Shown here piece by piece: positions 30,407-62,372 of a stretch of 64,000 bases of DNA. The position numbers and the translations under genes are program-made. Origin of the DNA: Podarcis liolepis (lineage: Eukaryota); assembly GCA_965112155.1 (NCBI GenBank), contig OZ218099.1. One strand, 5' to 3'. Every line of letters begins with the position of its first letter. Within the stretch, counting starts at the first letter, position 1. The notes under the pieces are model-generated. The model worked only from the letters and a program-made list of their open reading frames with translations. It was not told the DNA's origin and made no database searches.

Positions 30407-30543
30407 TTCAGATGGACTGTCCTCAAAATATATTTTTCTAAGGTGTGTGAGGGAATTTTCATAGCCTCCAAGAGGAACAGCCCAATCTCAGACTACGAGT
30501 TGGAATTTATAGCCAAGGTAATACCATGGATAGGCTATGGCTA

Positions 30544-31168
30544 TGTGATGGCCTGGGACTCGGACTCAGACTCGGAACCAGAGGAGACTCAGTCTGCACC
30601 AGATCCTTTGCCTCAGGCACCACCTGAACCAAGTCTGGGGCCGGATCCTGAAGAGTCCCAGTCTGCACAGATTCCCCTGCAACAAACACCAGCTGGGCCG
30701 AGTCAGGGGCCTGAGCCTACCCTGGCTCCAGATGCGGGGATTACCTCATTGCCTTCAGCTAGGCCATCACTTACAGCTGCTCCACTACCGGTTGGGTCAG
30801 GGGAGGCTGAGGCTGAGGCGGCCCCTGGGTCTAGTAACCCACCAACGTCTCCTGAGCTGCAGAGACTAAGGTCGGAGAGAAGGAGAGACCTGAGTACCCG
30901 CAGGAGGAATGCTCGCCTTTGGGCAAAACAGGGAGGTGAGTTGCCAGGGGATCAGGACCAGCCGCTACCCTGACAAAGATAGAAGGCTATCGGACCGCGC
31001 CTCAGGTTGCGGGAGCAACATTGCTGCATGCTAGATCATGCACCTGTCCTTGCCTGGTTTTCTGCCTCGTGTCTTGCCTTGGCCCTGTCGGACTGACTCC
31101 TAGCAGAGCCTTCGGATTCTGGACCAGTCCTGGACCACGTTTCATGGGTTACCCCCGGGCCCAGCACA
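30544..31168 (+). mobile_element. Solo LTR, probably Gypsy-type (625 bp)
   Basis: Begins TGTGATGG and ends CCAGCACA (imperfect inverted termini, TG..CA). Perfect 5-bp TSD GGCTA at 30539-30543 and 31169-31173. GC-rich relative to the flanks. The superfamily assignment is inferred. Confidence 0.85.
30548..30973 (+). CDS. LTR-internal ORF, 141 aa, acidic/Pro-rich with Arg-rich C-terminal motif; function unknown
   Basis: ATG at LTR position 5 (GTGATGG), open to TGA 30971-30973: MAWDSDSDSEPEETQ...LQRLRSERRRDLSTRRRNARLW...PLP. The internal 23-codon repeat has 7 synonymous differences among 14 conserved residues. Confidence 0.55.
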   Translation: MAWDSDSDSEPEETQSAPDPLPQAPPEPSLGPDPEESQSAQIPLQQTPAGPSQGPEPTLAPDAGITSLPSARPSLTAAPLPVGSGEAEAEAAPGSSNPPTSPELQRLRSERRRDLSTRRRNARLWAKQGGELPGDQDQPLP

Positions 31169-33041
31169 GGCTATTCCTACCTCTGGCTAGGAATTCTCTG
31201 GGTCCAAGATCTGTATCCCCAGCCTGCTGACAACAGGCGTGTTGCATCCAAACCATCTCCACCTTTGGATGGTGGCACAAATATAAGGTGTGTGCCTTGA
31301 GGTGGAGAAAGCAATCTTACTTTTACCTTGTTCCCCACCATTGGAGTCAATGGGATTAGAATAACTTCTGCCAAGTTCTGCCCTGGTGTAGATTCCTGCT
31401 CTATATATGGGTGTGTCCCTGCAAGGAGGGGAGTTAAGCATTTCTATAGGTGTGTTGGTGCAGGAATCAACCCCCCACTCCATCCATGCCCCAGTTTCAT
31501 ATACTTCACCACTGGGACATGGTGGAGCCTTCAAGGCAGAATAAGCTTATGATAGCATTGCGGCTTGTGTATCCTAGTAGCAGATATCTTGTTCTGCTGT
31601 TGGCATGGCAGCCCTGCCATTTCCAAGTTCCACTCGGCCAGCAGATATCAGGGCCAGGATTGCACCCTTAGTAATTCCCCTCCCCCTGCTCCACTGCAAA
31701 TGTTCATCACAACAAAATGTTCACCCGGATGCTTACCGTTAAGGTCTGTAAGAAAAAAGAAAATTAGAAAGCTCTCCGGTTAACGCAAAATCCCTGCTGC
31801 TTGTTAAATAGCAATTAGCATGTTTTGTGAAGCTCTCTTGGGAACAGTGGAGGGGAAAACCCACAGATTATTATTATCAGGTCAATGCTCAGAAGCACCA
31901 AGACATATGCTGAAGAAGTCAGATGTTGTGCCACTTGTAAGTACAAACTGACCTCTGTGAGTTTGCCAAACTTTTAGTCTTGCAATGATATAGACATTTA
32001 TTAAATGGAAAAAAGTATTAGTGGATCAATGAAAGAAGGGCAGCATGTGTCAAAGCAAAAAACCTCCATGACCTTTGCGGTTCTTTACTGCAGAGTTTTG
32101 AAATGTGTTTTTTTTTAAGAGAGAAAAAGCTGTGTGCAAATCTTTAGTGAACAAGCATTTCTGAAGGTATCTATGGGCAGCATTTTTTTTTTTAAAATAG
32201 AAAGCCTAGAAACTACATGAGCTGTTTTTACCCTGGATCCAGCTGTACTTACAGATCTATGCTGGCTTTAAAACGCTCACAGCACAATTATCTTTCTTCT
32301 CAGAGACTAATACCAAAAAAATTATTATTGTTGTCACTAAAACTTGTACTAATTGCTTATTTGTCCCTTCTTGGCAAGGACTGAGTTTTATACCTCTTTG
32401 ACTAGGGATAAAAGCTCTTTAAGTGATGTCCACTCTCAAGCCTAGTAAATGCTGGATTAAAGCTTAAGTACCTCATGCTGTGTATGAATCATGCCACATT
32501 TCCCCATCCCAATAGCATGCTTTCAACTAGCACTGTGCTGAAAATTTCTTCTGCAACTCCCCCCAACCATGCTCCCTCAATCAATGGGGAAAGAAATTGC
32601 ATTTGAAAATTATCAGAGGGGGAGAGAACACTTTGCTGATGTTCTCATGAGTGTGGTATGGTTTTTGTTTTCTTTTTTAAATGTGCTTACTTTATAATTG
32701 TGGTGGCTATGGAGTCACGAGTGTCCTTACTGTACTTTCATTCTACAATTATCTCAGCAGTGTCCTGCACTCTGCAGTCTTCCTTGGTGCCCACACTTCA
32801 ACCAAAGCCTGAGGATGATAACAGTGAGATAACTCCGTCCATGGGACTTTTTCTGATCAGAAAGTCCATGCTGATGGGGAGGCTGGAGAGTGCTAGAGAA
32901 ATCTTCACAGGATATAAAAAAGCACATACATTATACTTGGCTACTGGAATAAGTTTCAGTTCAATATACGTACCGAGAGAAACATGGTGGCTTTTTTAAA
33001 CAACAATATACAACGAACACTAGTTTGCAACCACCTGGCAG

Positions 33042-49211: not shown

Positions 49212-49414
49212 CAATGTTCATAATTTCTCCAATAACGCCACAGATGGCTTTACAGTGTGTTTATTCCATATAGTTACATTATTTTTACTTTTATATACAA
49301 CCCTTCGATATATTCCCAGGGCTGTATACAAATTGTATACAAATTGTAAAACAATTTAAATGTAAATACAAAATTAATTAATTATTTCTAGAGAGCCACA
49401 AAATCATAAAAGCA

Positions 49415-49448
<34 letters not shown>

Positions 49449-49468
49449 ACCTTTCAGCAGGACTGAAA
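49212..49468 (+). repeat. Copy 1 of ~257-bp flank duplication (left of copia)
   Basis: CAATGTTCATAATTTC...(GT)15...CAGGACTGAAA matches 54704-54962 except for the GT repeat count. Confidence 0.95.
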
Positions 49469-49854
49469 TGTTAGGATATTTCCGTTCCACCTTAACAGGG
49501 AGCAGGCTTTGGGAGACACAGAGTCTGCGCATGTCCTGATTCACAGGATGTTTATGTTTCTGCTTGTTGTTTCCTTTCGTTTTCAGTCGGCTCAGACACG
49601 CTGACAGAATGGACGTGTTTTCTTTTGTTCTGTTAAACGCTAAATAAAGTCTGTAAATTATGTTCTTCTGTGATGCAAGCTTTTGGCTGTATTTCTGCTG
49701 AAAGAGGGTGCACCAGCCTAGGAATGTGGCTAGGAATTTCTAAGGCTTTGTGCCCCTAACTGTTGGATCTGCGTGACTACGGGAGGCCGATGGAATCTCC
49801 GAGCTCCGGCTTGGGGGCCATGATGGACGTTATCTCCCTGGCAGTTTCCCAACA
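49469..49854 (+). repeat. Copia 5' LTR (~386 bp)
   Basis: Starts TGTTAGG and ends CCCAACA (imperfect terminal inverted repeat); AATAAA at 49643-49648. The end could alternatively be 49857 because of AACAACA. Confidence 0.95.
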
Positions 49855-49858
49855 ACAA

Positions 49859-49872
49859 GGTTTCGGGCCCAG
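49859..49872 (+). promoter_or_regulatory. Primer-binding site, half-tRNA-iMet (Drosophila copia/hemivirus) type, 2 mismatches
   Basis: GGTTTCGGGCCCAG just after the 5' LTR, versus the canonical copia PBS GGTTATGGGCCCAG, which pairs with the anticodon arm of initiator tRNA-Met. Confidence 0.75.
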
Positions 49873-50125
49873 ATTCACGGCACCTACAGGAGAGTAAAGC
49901 TGCAACAGACTGCGTTTAAGAGGTACGGTGGGAAAAGCGAAAGAAATGAGGGAGGCTTTTGGCTTTTCTGTTTACCTCTCCGGCAAGGCTTAATTGGCCT
50001 GGGAGCTGAGCCAAAAAGGCTTCGTGATTAATGAGCTGCCAAGATAAGGAGTCTTTGAAGGCATAGGGCTCAGGGCTCAAGTAAAAAGCTGAGATGGATC
50101 TTTTACAGACCTCAGAAACTGCTCC

Positions 50126-53100
50126 GTGTCCACTAAAGCTGAATGCCCTAAGTTGGATGGGCAGAATTATGAACCCTGGGCAAAATGGTGTGAGAGTTTA
50201 CTGCGTCAGTTTGGGGTGTGGCATGTTGTTTATGAAGCCCCCCCAGTTCCTCTGACAGAGAGATGGAAATCAGCTGATTCGAGAGCGATGGACATAATAG
50301 TCCTATCCGTATCTCTTGAGGAAATTAAGACGCTGGCTGGCAACACCACTGCACGTGCAATGTGGAATGCTTTAAAAAAAGCTCATTTGCCAATAATCCC
50401 AGCCCAGAGTTTGACTGCATCGGAGGTCCTAGCTGTTTCCCAGAATGCGTATGAGTGCAGGGATGCTGAGGGCACCGGTTGCAAGCTGCAGGGGGAGCTG
50501 ACCGTCACGTCATCCCAGGCAGCATTCCAGCCTCCAGGGGGAGCCAAGGAGTCGGCAGCTGAGAGCTCTGGTTCTCGTGAGAACCAAGGTCATCGCCTTT
50601 GCAGAGGCCGGAAAAGCAAAGGTAAACAGATGTCTACAGATGGCCAGGAGCAGAGGGAGGGTGAAGAGCCCGCGGCGCCAGGGAAAAACAAAGCATTGTT
50701 TGCTGGCACAGCTTCACCAAAGGCTAAAGGCACGTCTGCTGGCCAGGAGCAGCAGGGGGGCAAGCTGCAAAAGCCCAAACCGCTGCAAAACAAGGGTTTG
50801 CTTGCTGTAAGGACTGCTCCAACAGCCAAAGGCAGGTTTATTGTGGACTCAGGTGCCAGCCGCCACGTTTCCAAGGACAGGCATCTCTTTATCTCCTTCA
50901 AGCCTCAGGAAGGTGAGATCCACCTGGCTGATGGAAGGACGTTGCAAATTGCAGGAGAAGGGACTGTGAAACTTGCAAGTTTGCACACAACCATCAGTGG
51001 TGTACTATATGTTCCAGGCGCTGCAAGCAACTTGTTGAGTGTCCCACAGCTTACTGGGCGTGGTTTTCAGATTTCCTTCAAGAGGAGCGTCTGTGTCATC
51101 AGTAAAGGCAAAGAGGACTATTTGCATGCAAAGTTTATGGATGGTTTGTTCCATATAACTTATGATGACACTGTTGTTGTATCTAATGCTGATTCTTGTT
51201 GTGTTGCACAAACTAACAAAGTTCTTCATGCAGGTTGCATTCATGATGCACATCGAAGATTTTGTCACCTCTCTTGGAAGGCACTGGCCAAGATGCCAGA
51301 GGTGGTTGAGGGTTTGAACATCAAACCTTGTAAATTTCACATGAAATGTGTATCTTGTGCAGAGAACAAGGTGAAGGTTGCTCCAAAAGGCAAGGAGTCT
51401 AGCAGGCAGGCTTCCAAACCCTACCAGCTAGTGCATGCGGACCTGGTTGGTCCACTTGCGCCCTCTATAGGAGGAGCAAGGTACTTCATGATTCTGATTG
51501 ATTCTTTTTCCAGGTACATTCATGTGTATTTGCTCGAACAGAAATCGCAAGCGTTTCCGAAGTTTAAGGAATTCTGTGCTTGGTTGGAGAATGTGCACGG
51601 TAAACGTATTTCTTGTTTTTTTACTGATCGGGGCGGGGAGTTTACTTCTCAGCAGTTTGAAGCTTTCCTGACTGAGAAGGGAATCCAGCATGACATGTCA
51701 ACGCCCAGATCGCCATGGATGAATGGGCTTGCGGAGAGAACAAATCAAACATTGCTGCAAGGAATCAAGACCTTGTTGCATGATGCCAATCTCCCTGATA
51801 AGTTTTGGGGGGAGGCTTTGGGGAATTTTGTTTACAGCTTTAATCGCAGATTGTCATCACCCATTGGTTGTACCCCCTATGAGAAGATGTTTGGCAAGAA
51901 ACCCAACACCAAACACATGAGAATTTTTGGTTCAGACATGTGGGTACGCACACAACAAACCAACAAGCTTGGGAAGCGTGGGGCACATGGTTTGTTCATG
52001 GGGTACGAAAAAGGTGCATACAGGGTATGGATGACTGACTCTAAGTCCATTAAGTTCACAAGGAGTGTTGAGTACAATCCTAAGTGGGGGGAAAATGTGG
52101 GAATTTTCCAGAGTTACCCAGAGGAGGATGAAGGTGATGTCAAGCAAGCAGCTAAAGATGAGAAAGCTGCTGCTGAAGATGATGAGGATGAGGATGAGGA
52201 TGATGAGGATGATGATGATGATCAGAGTTCGGATTCCAGTTCAGTGGGCGGCGCTGCTGCTGCTGCTGGTATCAGTGACAGTGATGACACAGCAGACTAC
52301 AAGAGCGCACAGGCCTCAGTCAGACCATCTGATGCGTCTGACAATGAACTGGAAGAACCACTGTTCACCATTGGTCAATTTTCTCCTAAGAAAGAGGAGA
52401 TGAGTCCAGAAGACTTGCGTCTAGTACGCAGATCTGAAAGGGCGACCAAAGGCAGACCTCCAAAGAGGTATGCTGATGAGTTTGCTAAGACAGCAACTGC
52501 TGTTCTTGGTAGCTCAGAGAAGGTATGGGAACCTTCAAGCTTCAAAGAGGTTCAGGAGTTAACCTCTAAAGATGCTGAGCCTTGGCTTAATGCCATGAAG
52601 GCTGAAGTTGATTCCTTGAACAGGAACCAAACTTGGGAATTGGTACCGGTAGTCCCAGGAATGAGACTGGTTGGCAGCAAATGGGTCTTCAAGGCCAAGA
52701 CAGACCAGAATGGCAAGGTAGTCAGACACAAAGCCAGATTAGTTGCCAGAGGTTTTTCACAGGTACCAGGACAGGATTACCACGAGACCTACTCTCCCAC
52801 AGTCAAATATGAGAGCATTCGGCTGATGCTCAAGATCGCTGCGGAGGAGAAACTGCATGTTTCCCACCACGACATTAATACAGCTTTTTTGTACGGGATT
52901 TTGAATGAACAGCTGTTCATGCTTCCACCTGATGGGATGGAGATACAGAAGGGTATGGTCTGTAAACTGCGGAAATCCTTATATGGTCTTAAGCAGAGTG
53001 CCAGGTGTTGGAACACAAAACTCACTGAGACATTGCTTTCTCTAGGTTTTCACCAGGGCAAAGCTGATCCATGTGTGTTTGTCAAGGAGGAGGGGCAAAA

Positions 53101-54103
53101 CAAACTGTATTGTTTATGTTTTGTTGATGATCTTCTGATGTTTTGGAAGAATCAGGCTTTTTACCAAAGCACCCTAGCTCAACTGAAGGAGCACTTTGAC
53201 ATGAAGGATCTTGGTGAGGTATCCAACTATCTTTCTCTGCAGGTGGAGAAGGACCAAGCAGGTAATTTTCTGGTACACCAAACACAGAAAATTGCTGATG
53301 TATTAACCAGGTTGAATTTGGTTGATGCAAACCCAGCAGACACACCGATGGTGACAGGTTACCAGGTAGACAGTACTGCTGAAGCGTTTTCTGACACAAC
53401 GCTATACAGATGCATTCTAGGCAAGCTGAATTTCATTGCCAGATGTTCAAGACCTGACATAGCTGTAAGCTGTAATCTGCTTAGCAGACATGCCAACAAT
53501 CCTACGGTTCAGGATTGGAAAGCTCTGAAGCGCATAGCCCGCTATTTGAAAGGAACTATGCACTACAGGCTGAGGTTCACCAGTCAGAAGACTGGAGGTC
53601 TTGAAATCTTTGCAGATGCAAGTTTTGGAAGTGACACCACGGATGGTACAAGCACTTCTGGAGTATGCTACATGTACAACCACTGCCTGTTTGACTGGTT
53701 GTGCAAGAAGCAAACAACAGTGAGCCTAAGTTCCTGTGAAGCAGAACTCAATGCTCTGTCATTTTCACTCATGGATTGTGAATGGTTGATGCAACTGTTT
53801 AAGGACATCAGGGTGTCTGTGAAATGTCCTGTACAAGTGTATCAAGACAATAGATCGTGTTTGGCTTTGCTGAACTCCGAGAGTTGCAAGCAGAGAACCA
53901 AGTACTTGCAGATTAAGTTACATCGTGCAAGAGAGTGTATCCAGAAAGGACTGATTCAGGTGTCCTACATGCCAGGAAATGAAATTCCTGCTGATCTGTT
54001 GTCTAAGGTTGTTAACAAAGAACAACTAAAGGTTTATGTACAAAAGTTGCAATTGGGTGAACCACAGGTACTACAGGTTACACGGAAAGGGGGAGGATGT
54101 TAG
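50126..54103 (+). CDS. Copia gag-pol polyprotein (1325 codons, no internal stops)
   Basis: Gag N-terminus KLDGQNYEPW and TARAMWNALKK; protease FIVDSGASRH (Asp codon 50846); integrase HHCC (HRRFCH...CVSC) and DDE (VHADLVGP, TDRGGEF, NGLAER); RT (GSKWVFK, DINTAFL, SLYGLKQS, FVDD at 53120-53131); RNase H (FADASF, CEAEL, QDNRS, ADLLSK). The start is a GTG; the first in-frame ATG is at 50288. The stop TAG lies inside the 3' LTR. Confidence 0.95.
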   Translation: MSTKAECPKLDGQNYEPWAKWCESLLRQFGVWHVVYEAPPVPLTERWKSADSRAMDIIVLSVSLEEIKTLAGNTTARAMWNALKKAHLPIIPAQSLTASEVLAVSQNAYECRDAEGTGCKLQGELTVTSSQAAFQPPGGAKESAAESSGSRENQGHRLCRGRKSKGKQMSTDGQEQREGEEPAAPGKNKALFAGTASPKAKGTSAGQEQQGGKLQKPKPLQNKGLLAVRTAPTAKGRFIVDSGASRHVSKDRHLFISFKPQEGEIHLADGRTLQIAGEGTVKLASLHTTISGVLYVPGAASNLLSVPQLTGRGFQISFKRSVCVISKGKEDYLHAKFMDGLFHITYDDTVVVSNADSCCVAQTNKVLHAGCIHDAHRRFCHLSWKALAKMPEVVEGLNIKPCKFHMKCVSCAENKVKVAPKGKESSRQASKPYQLVHADLVGPLAPSIGGARYFMILIDSFSRYIHVYLLEQKSQAFPKFKEFCAWLENVHGKRISCFFTDRGGEFTSQQFEAFLTEKGIQHDMSTPRSPWMNGLAERTNQTLLQGIKTLLHDANLPDKFWGEALGNFVYSFNRRLSSPIGCTPYEKMFGKKPNTKHMRIFGSDMWVRTQQTNKLGKRGAHGLFMGYEKGAYRVWMTDSKSIKFTRSVEYNPKWGENVGIFQSYPEEDEGDVKQAAKDEKAAAEDDEDEDEDDEDDDDDQSSDSSSVGGAAAAAGISDSDDTADYKSAQASVRPSDASDNELEEPLFTIGQFSPKKEEMSPEDLRLVRRSERATKGRPPKRYADEFAKTATAVLGSSEKVWEPSSFKEVQELTSKDAEPWLNAMKAEVDSLNRNQTWELVPVVPGMRLVGSKWVFKAKTDQNGKVVRHKARLVARGFSQVPGQDYHETYSPTVKYESIRLMLKIAAEEKLHVSHHDINTAFLYGILNEQLFMLPPDGMEIQKGMVCKLRKSLYGLKQSARCWNTKLTETLLSLGFHQGKADPCVFVKEEGQNKLYCLCFVDDLLMFWKNQAFYQSTLAQLKEHFDMKDLGEVSNYLSLQVEKDQAGNFLVHQTQKIADVLTRLNLVDANPADTPMVTGYQVDSTAEAFSDTTLYRCILGKLNFIARCSRPDIAVSCNLLSRHANNPTVQDWKALKRIARYLKGTMHYRLRFTSQKTGGLEIFADASFGSDTTDGTSTSGVCYMYNHCLFDWLCKKQTTVSLSSCEAELNALSFSLMDCEWLMQLFKDIRVSVKCPVQVYQDNRSCLALLNSESCKQRTKYLQIKLHRARECIQKGLIQVSYMPGNEIPADLLSKVVNKEQLKVYVQKLQLGEPQVLQVTRKGGGC
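54084..54097 (+). promoter_or_regulatory. Polypurine tract
   Basis: GGAAAGGGGGAGGA directly abuts the TG of the 3' LTR. Confidence 0.9.
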
Positions 54104-54480
54104 GATATTTCCGTTCCACCTTAACAGGGAGCAGGCTTTGGGAGACACAGAGTCTGCGCATGTCCTGATTCACAGGATGTTTATGTTTCTGCTTGTTGTT
54201 TCCTTTCGTTTTCAGTCGGCTCAGACACGCTGACAGAATGGACGTGTTTTCTTTTGTTCTGTTAAACGCTAAATAAAGTCTGTAAATTATGCTCTTCTGT
54301 GATGCAAGCTTTTGGCTGTATTTCTGCTGAAAGAGGGTGCACCAGCCTAGGAATGTGGCTAGGAATTTCTAAGGCTTTGTGCCCCTAACTGTTGGATCTG
54401 CGTGACTACGGGAGGCCGATGGAATCTCCGAGCTCCGGCTTGGGGGCCATGATGGACGTTATCTCCCTGGCAGTTTCCCA
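54098..54480 (+). repeat. Copia 3' LTR (383 bp, terminal bases missing)
   Basis: Identical to the 5' LTR except T49663/C54292. Similarity stops at ...CAGTTTCCCA, without the final ACA. Confidence 0.95.
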
Positions 54481-54703: not shown

Positions 54704-54906
54704 CAATGTTCATAATTTCTCCAATAACGCCACAGATGGCTTTACAGTGTGTTTATTCCATATAGTTACATTATTTTTACTTTTATATACAACCCTTCGA
54801 TATATTCCCAGGGCTGTATACAAATTGTATACAAATTGTAAAACAATTTAAATGTAAATACAAAATTAATTAATTATTTCTAGAGAGCCACAAAATCATA
54901 AAAGCA

Positions 54907-54942
<36 letters not shown>

Positions 54943-54962
54943 ACCTTTCAGCAGGACTGAAA
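54704..54962 (+). repeat. Copy 2 of flank duplication (right of copia)
   Basis: Same sequence as 49212-49468 but with (GT)16. Confidence 0.95.
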
Positions 54963-56985
54963 TACATTTGGGAGCTCTTTGCCACTGATGAAAATTTTCC
55001 CCAATTCGGTGCACTGAAATCTTCACAAGCTACTGCGATGCAGGAAGAACAACTGAGAGGGCACCAGTGCTTCCCAAAGGACAAGCATAGATACTGCTCA
55101 TTAGTCAAGGCAACTTCGCTATCATTAGAAACACTGCGAGCTCAAAGAAACCCCACAGTATGTTGCTGTACAATCTAAGGTCACCGTACATAAAGAAATG
55201 CCATCCCAAATTGGCACGGTGCTTGAGAGCCTTATAGAAAAGCATATTGACAGTGAAACTGTTCTAATCAGGTAAATTATCACTTTGCACACACAAAAAG
55301 ACAGATTTCCTTAATAACATCACAGCTCTGGGGAAGTTGGAGGAGAGGTCATCAATAAAAGCAATTACACGTTCAATGGGAGCAGCAAAGTATGCTATAG
55401 CACGTTTCTCGATCTTTTTGGTAATTTCAAATGGGTTGTCCTTGTATGAAACAAGCCCATTTTAAAAGTCATGCAACACATCAATACTACCAATAAGCAT
55501 TAGGTTAGATTTCATTTTATGGAACGGCTGTCCTTCTGTTATAGGTCCTAAACCAAAAGGACATCCTGCCATGTCAAACCCTACGCTGTGGTGTCCCATT
55601 TCTGGGGGGACGGGGGACGGGACATGATCTGGCACAGAGTCAGTATAGGGGAACAACTTATCTCTTTCTTTGGATGCTAGGAAAAATGTATCTGCCTTTT
55701 ATGGTGTTGTGCTGGACTTCTGACCCACATTCTTGTAACTCACAGACGTGCTGCAAGGGGGCACTTGCGCCGATCACTCGGAATGGGAATGCAGTCACGG
55801 AATATTATGGGCTATTTCAGTAAAAGTTAATATTTATTTCCGCATCATGGAGTGGGGATGCCATTTTAAGTTTGTTTCTTTATTAAAAATGAGGACCATC
55901 CCATCATATAAAATATCAAGGCGGAATACAATAAATATGAAACGCACAGTAAAACATAAAATGCCATAGATGCAAATTAAAATAATTCTTAATGGTCAGT
56001 CACTTTAAGCCAACTGTCTTCAGTTGGTGGGTTGGGGGCCTGATCCAAAGCAAGATGCAACTGGAGCACCACCACCATGCAAATATGTGGTAAAAAAGAA
56101 AAGAAAAAAAGAAATGGGTCATCAAATGCATGTTTGTGTTAAAAGTGGTCCTGGAACAGGTTTGGGTGGAGCAATTTCATTACATTTATTTAAAGTGTAG
56201 TTAAAATTGACATTGGACATCTACTGGACATTGTGGTGATCACATCTTTTTAGAAGGTTAGTATATTAATTGTATCATCCTGGAAGTAATCGTGGTGCAA
56301 TCTAAAAGCTTCAGACATAGATCTCTCTAGAGCACGCATGAATTGCATTAACAGAAGCAGCAGCAACCCATGAAATTTCCATTGCCCGCCCAGCTGTTGA
56401 AATTCAGTGGGAGATACTGCTGCTGTTTGTGACACGACATCTGATTTAATATTTATATCGCACATTTAATATTTATATAGCACAATGATGTGCTAGATGC
56501 TGTACAGAATACAAAGGCAATGCCAAATGCATAAATTAGGCGTATCACAACCTGATGCTTCTCAGAGGGCTTGCTAGCCATATTGAAGATCTAGCTGCAT
56601 GCAGAAAATCAACGTCCCTGATTTTAACAACTGCAACATGCAATTGTTTCAATATATACCTCTCCAGAAGGGATTAAGCCTGTCAAAATCTGATCCGTTC
56701 AGGAGTATCCAAGCAGAGAATCTTGGAAAGTTTTTTTGTTTTTTTCTAAGGAAAGTCTCTAGCAATTTTTATTTTTTACCAGAATCAATTGCAAATGTGC
56801 CCAGTGGGCACATTTCAGAAAGATGGGTACAGCAGTTCTTCCACGAGGAAGGCCTTTCTGGTTGAGGATGAGATGGTAGAAAATATGTTCCCTCCCCTGA
56901 TTTGATTTTTTGGGGTGATCAGGTTGAAAATTGGGTTATGGCAGAGGTTCCCCGGGTCAAAAACCTGACAAATGTTAGATAAATG

Positions 56986-60446: not shown

Positions 60447-61769
60447 TCATGTATAGTGAGATAAGAATCCAATGTCTTTGTTCAGCCCAGGTCTCTCCAT
60501 TGTTTTAAGTTTGGTAATGAGTTGTAATTCAGCAGCTTCTCTTTCCAGTCTATTTCTGAAATTCCTTTGTAGTAAAACAGCTACTTTGAGATCTTGTATA
60601 GAATGTCCTGGGAGATTGAAGTGTTCTCCTACTGGTTTCTCTGTTTTGTGATTCTTGATGTCAGATTTATGTCCGTTTATTCTTTGGCGTAAGGTTTGGC
60701 CTGTTTGTCCAATATAGAGAGCTGAAGGACACTGTTGGCATTTGATGGCATACACAATGTTAGACGATGAGCAATTAAATAGTCCCGAGATGGTATGTGT
60801 GATGTTGTTGGGGCCAGTAATGGTGTTGTCCGGGTGTATGTGGCAGCAAAGTTGGCATCTGGGTTTATTGCAGGCTCTGGTGCCAGTGTCCGTGTTAAGT
60901 CTGGTTGTAGTATTATTGTGGGTTAGGAGTTGTTTAAGATTGGGTGGCTGTCTGTAGGCAATGAAAGGTCTTCCTCCCAGAGCTTGAGAAAGAGAACTGT
61001 CATTGTCCAGGGGAGGTTGTAGATCTCTGATGATGCGTTGTACTGTTTTAACTTGGGAGCTGTATGTGATGACTAGAGGTGTTCTGTTATTTTCTTTTTT
61101 GGGTCTGTCTTGCAGCAAGTTCTCTCTGGGTATCAGTCTGGCTCTGTTGATCTGTTGTCTAACTTCATCTGCTGGGTATTTTAGTTCTGAGAAGGTTTGC
61201 TGTAGATCTCTTAGGTGAGAGTCTCTGTCTGTAGAATTGGAACAGATGCGGCTGTAACGTAGTGCCTGGCTATATACAATGGACTGTTTGGTATGTTTGG
61301 GATGGTAGCTAGAGGCATGTAGATATGTTTATCGGTCAGTTGGTTTGCGGTATAAGGTGGTGTCTATGCGCCCATCCTGTATTTTTATAGTAGTGTCCAA
61401 AAAATGTATTTCTTGCATAGATTGATTCATTGTAAGGTTGATTGTGGGGTGAAAATCATTAAATTTCTGGTGAAAGGTGTCCAGGGTCTGTTGACCATGT
61501 GTCCAGATGATAAAAATATCGTCAATGTATCGCAGGTACAAGAGAGGTTTGAGTGGGTAGGAGTTCAGGAAACGTTGTTCTAAATCTGCCATGAAGATGT
61601 TGGCATACTGTGGGGCCATGCGGGTGCCCATTGCTGTGCCGCTGATCTGAAGGAACAGGTCATCACCGAATTTGAAGTTGTTGTGGGTAAGGACAAATTG
61701 GCAGAGTTTGGTGGCAAGGTCCGCTGTGGTTTTATCTGAAATGGTGTTCCTTATAGCTTGTAAACCATC
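60447..61769 (-). pseudogene. Penelope RT/GIY-YIG ORF remnant with one premature stop
   Basis: ORFs 61329-61631 and 60447-61118 are in the same frame and separated only by TAA at 61329-61331. The N-terminal part is missing through truncation. Confidence 0.9.
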
Positions 61770-62372
61770 GACAAAATATCTTTGTCAGCTTTGTGCATGG
61801 CCAGCTCACCCGTGAGGCAAGGTGAGGCGACTGCCTCAGGCAGCAGGAGCCACAGGTGCAGCATATCCTGATGTAGACTATTTATTTATTTATTTGATTT
61901 CTATACTGCCCTTCGTCAAAAGATCTCACGGCGGTTCGCAAGATAAGCACACAAGAGATAAGCACAAATAAGTAGTTAAAGCGGAAACAACAAAACAATA
62001 CCCCCCAAATACATCTAAAAGGCTGTAGAATACTAATCAGTCAAAGATCTTAAACCCATCCTTGTTGCTGATGTAGCTCTTTATGCACCCCTTCTTCTCT
62101 AGCGGGGAGGGGAGCTGCCATTTTGTGGTTCGTCCCTGGCTGTGTGGAGTTTCTACACAGAAAGTGTTCTCTATGGAAATTGCACATATCACTGTGTAGC
62201 CCTTTCCACCGGCAATTGCTGAATTGCATTTCTGCTAAGAAGGGGCAGAGCAATCCAAACTCCTATTGTGTTGGGCTGGAAGTGGTGGTGGATTGGGTCC
62301 ACCCAGCCCTGCCAACCTCCTTTGGCCTCCTACCAGCCCAGAAATCTGTGGGAGGGTAGAAATACCACACCA

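Follow-up and report, generated by a model that had tools for sequence, protein, structure and literature searches.

The window analyzed here is a 64,000-nt stretch of Podarcis liolepis DNA (contig OZ218099.1). It carries, at 30544..31168, a 625-nt long terminal repeat (LTR) that begins TGTGATG, ends CAGCACA and is bounded by GGCTA on both sides. With its TG..CA ends, its target-site duplication and no internal sequence on either side, it is a solo LTR. The first-pass annotation had read it in this way and had placed an ATG at the fifth base of the LTR, opening a frame of 141 codons. We confirmed the two GGCTA copies at 30539-30543 and 31169-31173 and the uninterrupted frame at 30548-30973. 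Its 141-aa product has an acidic start, a Pro-rich linker and a basic block. The features of the locus are the following, in order of position.

30539..30543, no strand: 5' target-site duplication GGCTA, seen in the sequence; the duplication is likewise exact in 20 of 30 copies.
30544..31168, plus strand: solo LTR, TG...CA, of a chromovirus family (family A), probably of Tf1/sushi type, linked to gag and integrase remnants.
30548..30973, plus strand: U3 frame, almost certainly the integrase C-terminal tail of full-length elements; in frame with pol in remnant L145 and in 34 of 40 family B elements.
30848..30928, plus strand: conserved basic block, codons 101-127, with Ser-Pro, a predicted short helix and the motif; highest amino-acid identity between families.
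30902..30919, plus strand: HMGN-like motif, RRNARL in the window copy and RRSAR in most relatives.
30936..30941, plus strand: splice-donor-like GTGAGT just past the motif, seen in the sequence.
30978..30986, plus strand: decayed TATA box GATAGAAGG, downstream of the stop of the frame.
31009..31019, plus strand: complement of the primer-binding site, with which the 12 nt after the 5' LTR pair; predicted transcript 5' end and self-primer.
31169..31173, no strand: 3' copy of the target-site duplication, seen in the sequence.

The LTR is a high-copy repeat. Searching the 1.57-Gb genome of P. liolepis itself gave 1901 first-look candidates, and the 40 of these that were scored are 88-90% identical to the window LTR. 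The 30 best-scoring of the 40 were fetched as the family A sample. Their mean pairwise identity is 91.8% (15 of the 30 compared), and the 5-bp duplication is exact in 20 and has at most one mismatch in 27. No common internal sequence was found at the LTR edges in the flanks of these 30 best copies. Contigs from three public DNA runs have the repeat's loose ends at 30544 and 31168-31170, and they show two other organisms with the insertion at this site as well. We found no intact family A element; the internal remnants are few and broken. One contig, G000:C20, carries most internal remnants of families A and C (L146, L148, L272, L273, L279, L156 and L157), often broken up by other insertions, and may be a low-recombination region or a sex chromosome.

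Other elements lie further along the window. A Ty1/Copia element at 49468-54480 has one 1336-codon frame (50093-54103), 384-nt LTRs that are 99.7% identical, and an integrase tail that also holds an RRSER stretch. Unusually, 258 nt of its 5' flank (49212-49469) recur at 54704-54963, 223 nt past the 3' LTR. On the minus strand at 60447-61784 there are two adjacent open stretches of 151 and 293 codons, which we take to read like the reverse transcriptase and GIY-YIG nuclease of one Penelope-like element.

The LTR ATG is present in 27 of the 30 family A copies, and the frame is open from ATG to motif in 22, once L014, with a frameshift just before the motif, is dropped. Nonsense changes alone would leave a fraction of 0.56-0.70 open, a little less than is observed in this sample, which is weighted toward the best-scoring copies. 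Tail length varies by lineage with the frame intact, at 108, 114, 116, 129 and 139-142 codons. Pfam gave only a sub-threshold match of the 141-aa product to LacZ_4 and no match to HMG14/17 at E values up to 10, and an ESM Atlas search with the LTR product returned no usable match.

The identity of the frame is shown by a young sister family, family B, which we found by the pattern of a purine tract before the LTR start. Forty elements were fetched, and the median identity between 5' and 3' LTRs is 99.85% (39 measured). In Pfam terms, their order is Gag, protease, reverse transcriptase, RNase H, integrase, SH3 and chromodomain. The pol frame crosses the chromodomain and the polypurine tract into the LTR ATG in 34 of the 40 elements and stops 108-116 codons past that ATG, after RRSARL; in 28 of the 40, at least 1100 codons upstream of that ATG are free of stops. 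The remaining six have 9 or 10 G rather than 8 in a run of G some 20 nt upstream of the 3' LTR; with the extra G, Pol ends shortly past the chromodomain. This variation could be a slippage hot spot, an assembly error or a switch between short and long integrase. Family B also shows subfamily differences (L068 versus L062), with gag and pol either in one frame of 1558-1564 codons or in two overlapping frames of 307 and 1270 codons, and at G000:C2:104475365-104485403 three tract-LTR junctions spaced 5005 nt apart form a tandem array of elements. A generic pattern of tract plus LTR start, applied in search of other families, gave 41 matches against 37 in the control, which is chance level, and none of the 30 matches inspected had a chromodomain.

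The family B tail is homologous to the window frame at 47% identity. Two family A remnants bear the junction: L145 is in frame, and L146 lacks 11 nt and is out of frame. A third family, family C, has a 129-codon tail, and its sole junction (L279) is out of frame. Family A remnants match the gag, protease, reverse transcriptase, RNase H, integrase and chromodomain of family B at 53-83% identity. Protease, reverse transcriptase, RNase H and integrase followed by a chromodomain at the integrase C-terminus is the arrangement of chromoviruses (Ty3/Gypsy), and the LTR belongs to a chromovirus of wall lizards, probably of Tf1/sushi type.

We conclude with near certainty that the frame encodes the C-terminal tail of integrase, which extends into the 3' LTR. 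The claim that the LTR holds a coding frame is borne out, with the frame being the end of pol. Its companion claim, a separate accessory gene in U3 of the sag or nef type, is not supported: the frame is continuous with pol in L145 and in 34 of 40 family B elements, it stops short of the TATA box, its ATG belongs to the LTR terminus and is missing from two snake elements, and solo copies lose the motif. The coding sequences of MMTV sag and HIV nef overlap U3 and give separate proteins from their own mRNAs. The lizard frame overlaps U3 in the same way but is continuous with pol. The first-pass annotation had itself allowed for an integrase tail extending into the LTR and had looked to full-length elements for the answer; they give a continuation of pol rather than an independent frame, and a Podarcis muralis Pol model (UniRef100_A0A670IJD3) already ends in the tail. 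Podarcis also supplies the nearest named proteins.

The arrangement of the promoter bears on where the frame could be transcribed. A TATA box stands after the stop codon (consensus GATAAAAG) in 21 of 27 locatable family A copies, where it reads GATAAAAGG, and in 37 of 39 family B copies, where it reads GATAAAAGC. Since most family A copies carry GATAAAAGG, the GATAGAAGG of the window at 30978-30986 is a decayed version, as had been suspected. About 30 nt past the TATA box, the stretch at 31009..31019 is complementary to the 12 nt that follow the 5' LTR, as seen in 39 of 39 family B elements and also in L273, a remnant of family A. Tf1/sushi elements prime themselves by pairing the primer site with the 5' end of the transcript, according to the accessible text of two reports (PMC4600332, PMC6317226). 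By this complementarity, and with a transcript start placed from the TATA box, the lizard elements would self-prime as Tf1/sushi elements do, and their transcript would start near 31009. If so, the whole frame lies in U3 and is present on the element RNA only at its 3' end, where it closes pol. In a solo LTR the frame precedes the TATA box and would not be transcribed from the LTR's promoter, and the solo copy in the window likely makes no protein.

The ATG itself is part of the terminal sequence of the LTR, and Val takes its place in two snake models; the 5' end motif of Sushi is given as TGTYANR in the available part of one source (PMC3601003). The GTGAGT at 30936..30941 would serve as a splice donor. 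At another locus, the RefSeq P. muralis model LOC114604991 begins with the LTR ATG and departs from the frame at GTGAGT. It is matched by a family A solo LTR at L239:8298-9447 (G000:C11, near 69.11 Mb), and we considered an exapted host gene there. The matching locus has one stop at codon 15 of the LTR frame and a second in the downstream part, and we rejected that candidate. The origin as an integrase tail explains the long open frames in lizard solo LTRs that gene predictors call proteins.

Selection on the tail was estimated from pairs of real copies (22 of family A, 39 of family B and 16 of family C, leaving out L014 and the duplicate L231) by a counting method with a transition weight of 4, a codon bootstrap and at most 200 pairs per comparison. 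Net dN/dS between families in the pol frame is 0.43 (0.27-0.66), 0.49 (0.31-0.76) and 0.65 (0.40-1.01), and the two other sense frames give 1.3-2.5. The antisense frame that has its third positions in common with pol mirrors the pol-frame values, as expected. Judged from these sequence comparisons, the tail frame is under purifying selection between element lineages; the selection that the first-pass annotation had left to dN/dS is thus found between families, at 0.43-0.65, and in the pol frame only. In the basic block, dN/dS is 0.16 (0.04-0.39) for A versus C, with intervals that include 1 for A-B and B-C. Mean identity per ten columns is 0.59-0.88 in the basic block against 0.0-0.4 in the mid-linker. 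Solo copies of family C have a dN/dS of 1.01; those of family A have 0.70 (0.51-0.98), which is below neutral, possibly from subfamily structure. Solo copies lose the motif by ordinary decay.

The motif at the end of the tail reads RRSAR in 14 of 22 family A, 10 of 17 family C and 38 of 39 family B copies. With 14 of the 22 open family A copies reading RRSAR, the Asn of the window (codon AAT, 30908-30910) is a private variant of this copy, and the RRSARL that had been supposed to lie behind RRNARL is indeed the family motif. The last Arg is lost in 6 of the 22 family A copies. The motif alone is not rare: translated in six frames, the window holds another match to RRSARL with at most one mismatch. 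It is conservation across families, not occurrence, that exceeds chance. Around it, the basic block has 10 Lys/Arg in 27 residues. In eight lizard tails the Ser, the Pro and four Arg are invariant, as is the R-R-x-x-R spacing; the HMGN residues past the core (Ser-Ala) are matched only in part. A PDB sequence search with the motif alignment gave no matches. At the DNA level, neighboring codons differ synonymously among families A, B and C but the RRSAR codons do not, and in eight printed copies of the three families the latter are identical apart from the Asn codon of the window and one CpG change. Because of this lack of synonymous change, a DNA-level element in U3 may overlap the RRSAR constraint.

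Three Anolis Pol clusters (366, 94 and 17 members) have the chromodomain, the tract, Val-Met, an acidic linker and RRSARI, and three related Anolis clusters read RRSLRI, RQSLRI and RRNLRI. The Podarcis and Anolis linkers do not align. In Rhineura, Vipera and Crotalus, one model each shows an acidic tail whose basic end lacks RRSAR, and a single Salvator model has the acidic start of a tail; these may be decayed copies or other solutions. The LTR ATG is at the same place in the Anolis, Salvator and Rhineura models. Pol models of fish and frogs are without the motif: they stop shortly past the tract or have no RRSAR. Of 142 matches in a 90% collection, 128 bear a chromodomain, and RRSAR follows it in four, all from lizards. 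The looser RR[SN]xR occurs past the chromodomain in 1 of 138 representatives of 50% clusters against 1.3 in shuffles, so the motif is not general to chromoviruses. Fish and frog tails have features of their own. GRP lies within 60 residues past the chromodomain in 64 of the 128, mostly fish elements; many fish and frog Pol models, such as P0012, P0020 and P0021, have an AT-hook-like RGRGRP after the chromodomain and before the tract; and a short Ser-Pro-Asp/Glu-Tyr within the LTR closes the tail of many fish elements.

In an integrase tree that left out P0012, the Podarcis and Anolis integrases form one clade with support of 100/97. This lizard clade falls among frog, fish and unnamed rows, in a tree with deeper forks open and without a named Tf1 or Sushi-ichi reference. 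The seven tail-bearing rows as a clade by themselves were rejected (p-AU 4e-6), with the tail-less Anolis P0008 placed among them. The split between Podarcis and Anolis is well over 100 million years old, and elements may have passed between the two lineages by horizontal transfer.

In a model of the family B chromodomain and tail, the chromodomain is predicted with confidence, the linker is disordered and a weak helix immediately precedes the motif. With cage positions that we assume to correspond to those of HP1, the chromodomain has three aromatic cage residues (Tyr, Trp and Tyr). Three such residues define a type I chromodomain in the excerpted source (PMC3605345), and methyl-lysine reading is predicted from the residues present. 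In earlier work, the MAGGY chromodomain has been joined to the yeast Tf1 integrase (PMC4600332). For HMGN2, the accessible text describes RRSAR as the part resolved on the acidic patch, with the last Arg (R26) as the anchor (PMC12487698). Foamy virus Gag, LANA and IE1 are likewise described as using arginine anchors, and that of foamy virus as shaping integration sites (PMC9040877, in part). Because HMGN2 RRSAR and the viral anchors bind the acidic patch, we read the tail as a likely nucleosome tether: by analogy, its RRSAR probably docks on the H2A-H2B acidic patch. An integration tether, one of the functions suggested at the outset, is a plausible role.

The steps are as follows. In full-length elements, the pol frame takes in the integrase core, chromodomain, polypurine tract and U3 frame as one polypeptide, and the tail would stay on mature integrase. 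The long disordered linker would let the motif reach the nucleosome face, where the last Arg of RRSAR would act as an arginine anchor like R26 in HMGN2. The aromatic-cage chromodomain would read a methylated H3 tail, which would make two contacts per nucleosome. Recombination between LTRs yields solo copies, in which the frame, now without upstream pol, decays. Taken whole, a reading in which the U3 frame is an integrase tail whose RRSAR docks the integration complex on the acidic patch has, in our judgment, somewhat better than an even chance. A bolder version is tentative, and we put it a little short of even: squamate chromoviruses would have evolved an HMGN mimic in the LTR, making integrase a two-handed nucleosome reader with a methyl-lysine chromodomain and, on a long tether, an acidic-patch anchor. 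If it holds, thousands of solo LTRs spread the motif across lizard genomes, along with a start codon and a splice-donor-like site.

The main rival to acidic-patch docking is that the basic block acts in nuclear import or in plain, non-specific DNA or RNA binding, or as a kinase-regulated switch. The density of 10 Lys/Arg in 27 residues would suit such roles, as would the snake and amphisbaenian tails that keep a basic end without RRSAR, the basic, AT-hook-like GRP past the chromodomain in 64 of 128 elements and the invariant Ser-Pro ahead of the block. Charge alone, however, is not what is kept between Podarcis and Anolis. The exact spacing R-R-S/N-A/L-R-L/I persists while the rest of the tail diverges, and it equals that of the HMGN core. 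We therefore regard this rival as unlikely, though still deserving weight. That the conserved stretch is mainly a U3 promoter element, with the protein motif riding along, is the least probable of the readings. The absence of synonymous change in the RRSAR codons among families A, B and C, at about 60-75 nt upstream of the TATA box, speaks for it, but the Arg codons just upstream switch among AGG, CGG and CGA with Arg kept, dN/dS is low in the pol frame only, and the peptide motif is common to Anolis.

A small chromatin protein might instead be made from the LTR's own ATG, through 3' LTRs or host-promoter read-through of solo copies. Such a protein would fit with the presence of the ATG in 27 of 30 family A copies and with its matching position in Anolis, Salvator and Rhineura models; the start of LOC114604991 at this ATG and the dN/dS of 0.70 among family A solos would fit as well. 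Yet both the TATA box and the predicted transcript start come after the end of the frame; the ATG falls within the LTR terminus and is Val in two snake models; the locus matching LOC114604991 has stops, including one at codon 15; and solo copies have lost the anchor Arg. A stand-alone protein is accordingly very improbable, and docking of an integrase tail remains our preferred reading.

Little is known about the way in which LTR retrotransposons of vertebrates interact with chromatin and select the sites where they insert. Tf1/sushi chromoviruses such as Sushi-ichi and Amn-ichi, the V-clade in GyDB, are known from vertebrates and fungi in the accessible text (PMC6317226). Compared with the Tf1/sushi elements of fish and frogs, the lizard elements add 100-140 U3 codons that end in an HMGN-like motif. 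The core is found in most copies of the three Podarcis families and in three Anolis clusters. It resembles HMGN RRSARLSA and, in the excerpts available, tardigrade Dsup in having RRSAR followed by Leu/Ile in a disordered region (PMC12487698). The lizard motif differs from HMGN in its flanking residues and in sitting in a transposon enzyme rather than a free protein; with the RRSAR core present and no HMG14/17 Pfam match, the tail is not an HMGN protein, and its likeness to the HMGN core is likely convergent. The foamy virus Gag chromatin-binding sequence (CBS), KSHV LANA and CMV IE1 also tether a parasite to nucleosomes by a short arginine motif, but these viral tethers sit in Gag or in proteins of DNA viruses, whereas the lizard motif is on integrase itself; transposons do not appear in the accessible part of the review of such tethers (PMC9040877). 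Among the matches listed in a search of mostly non-subscription literature, without Repbase, Dfam or GyDB, no report of a retrotransposon integrase bearing an HMGN-like motif turned up.

The closest precedent for the arrangement comes from plants. In CRM group A and in some Tekay elements, Pol is described as extending into the 3' LTR and carrying a targeting module there (PMC3059260, PMC3605345, both in part). In the same excerpts, the polyprotein frame of CRM group A also enters the 3' LTR, the LTR-encoded part is a presumed targeting module and the LTRs likewise start TGATG; a CR motif replaces the chromodomain and the primer is tRNA-Met, whereas the lizard elements keep an aromatic-cage chromodomain (PMC3059260, PMC3605345). 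With a chromodomain present and a primer site complementary to the LTR, the lizard elements are not members of CRM group A, and what their LTR adds is a short linear motif. Pol reaching the 3' LTR is thus already known in plant chromoviruses, and an HMGN-like motif there is apparently new, as far as the reports found extend. If the motif binds the acidic patch, it would be a short, testable nucleosome tether on an integrase and a convergent copy of the HMGN core, and vertebrates would have a counterpart to the targeting module that plant centromeric elements encode in their LTRs.
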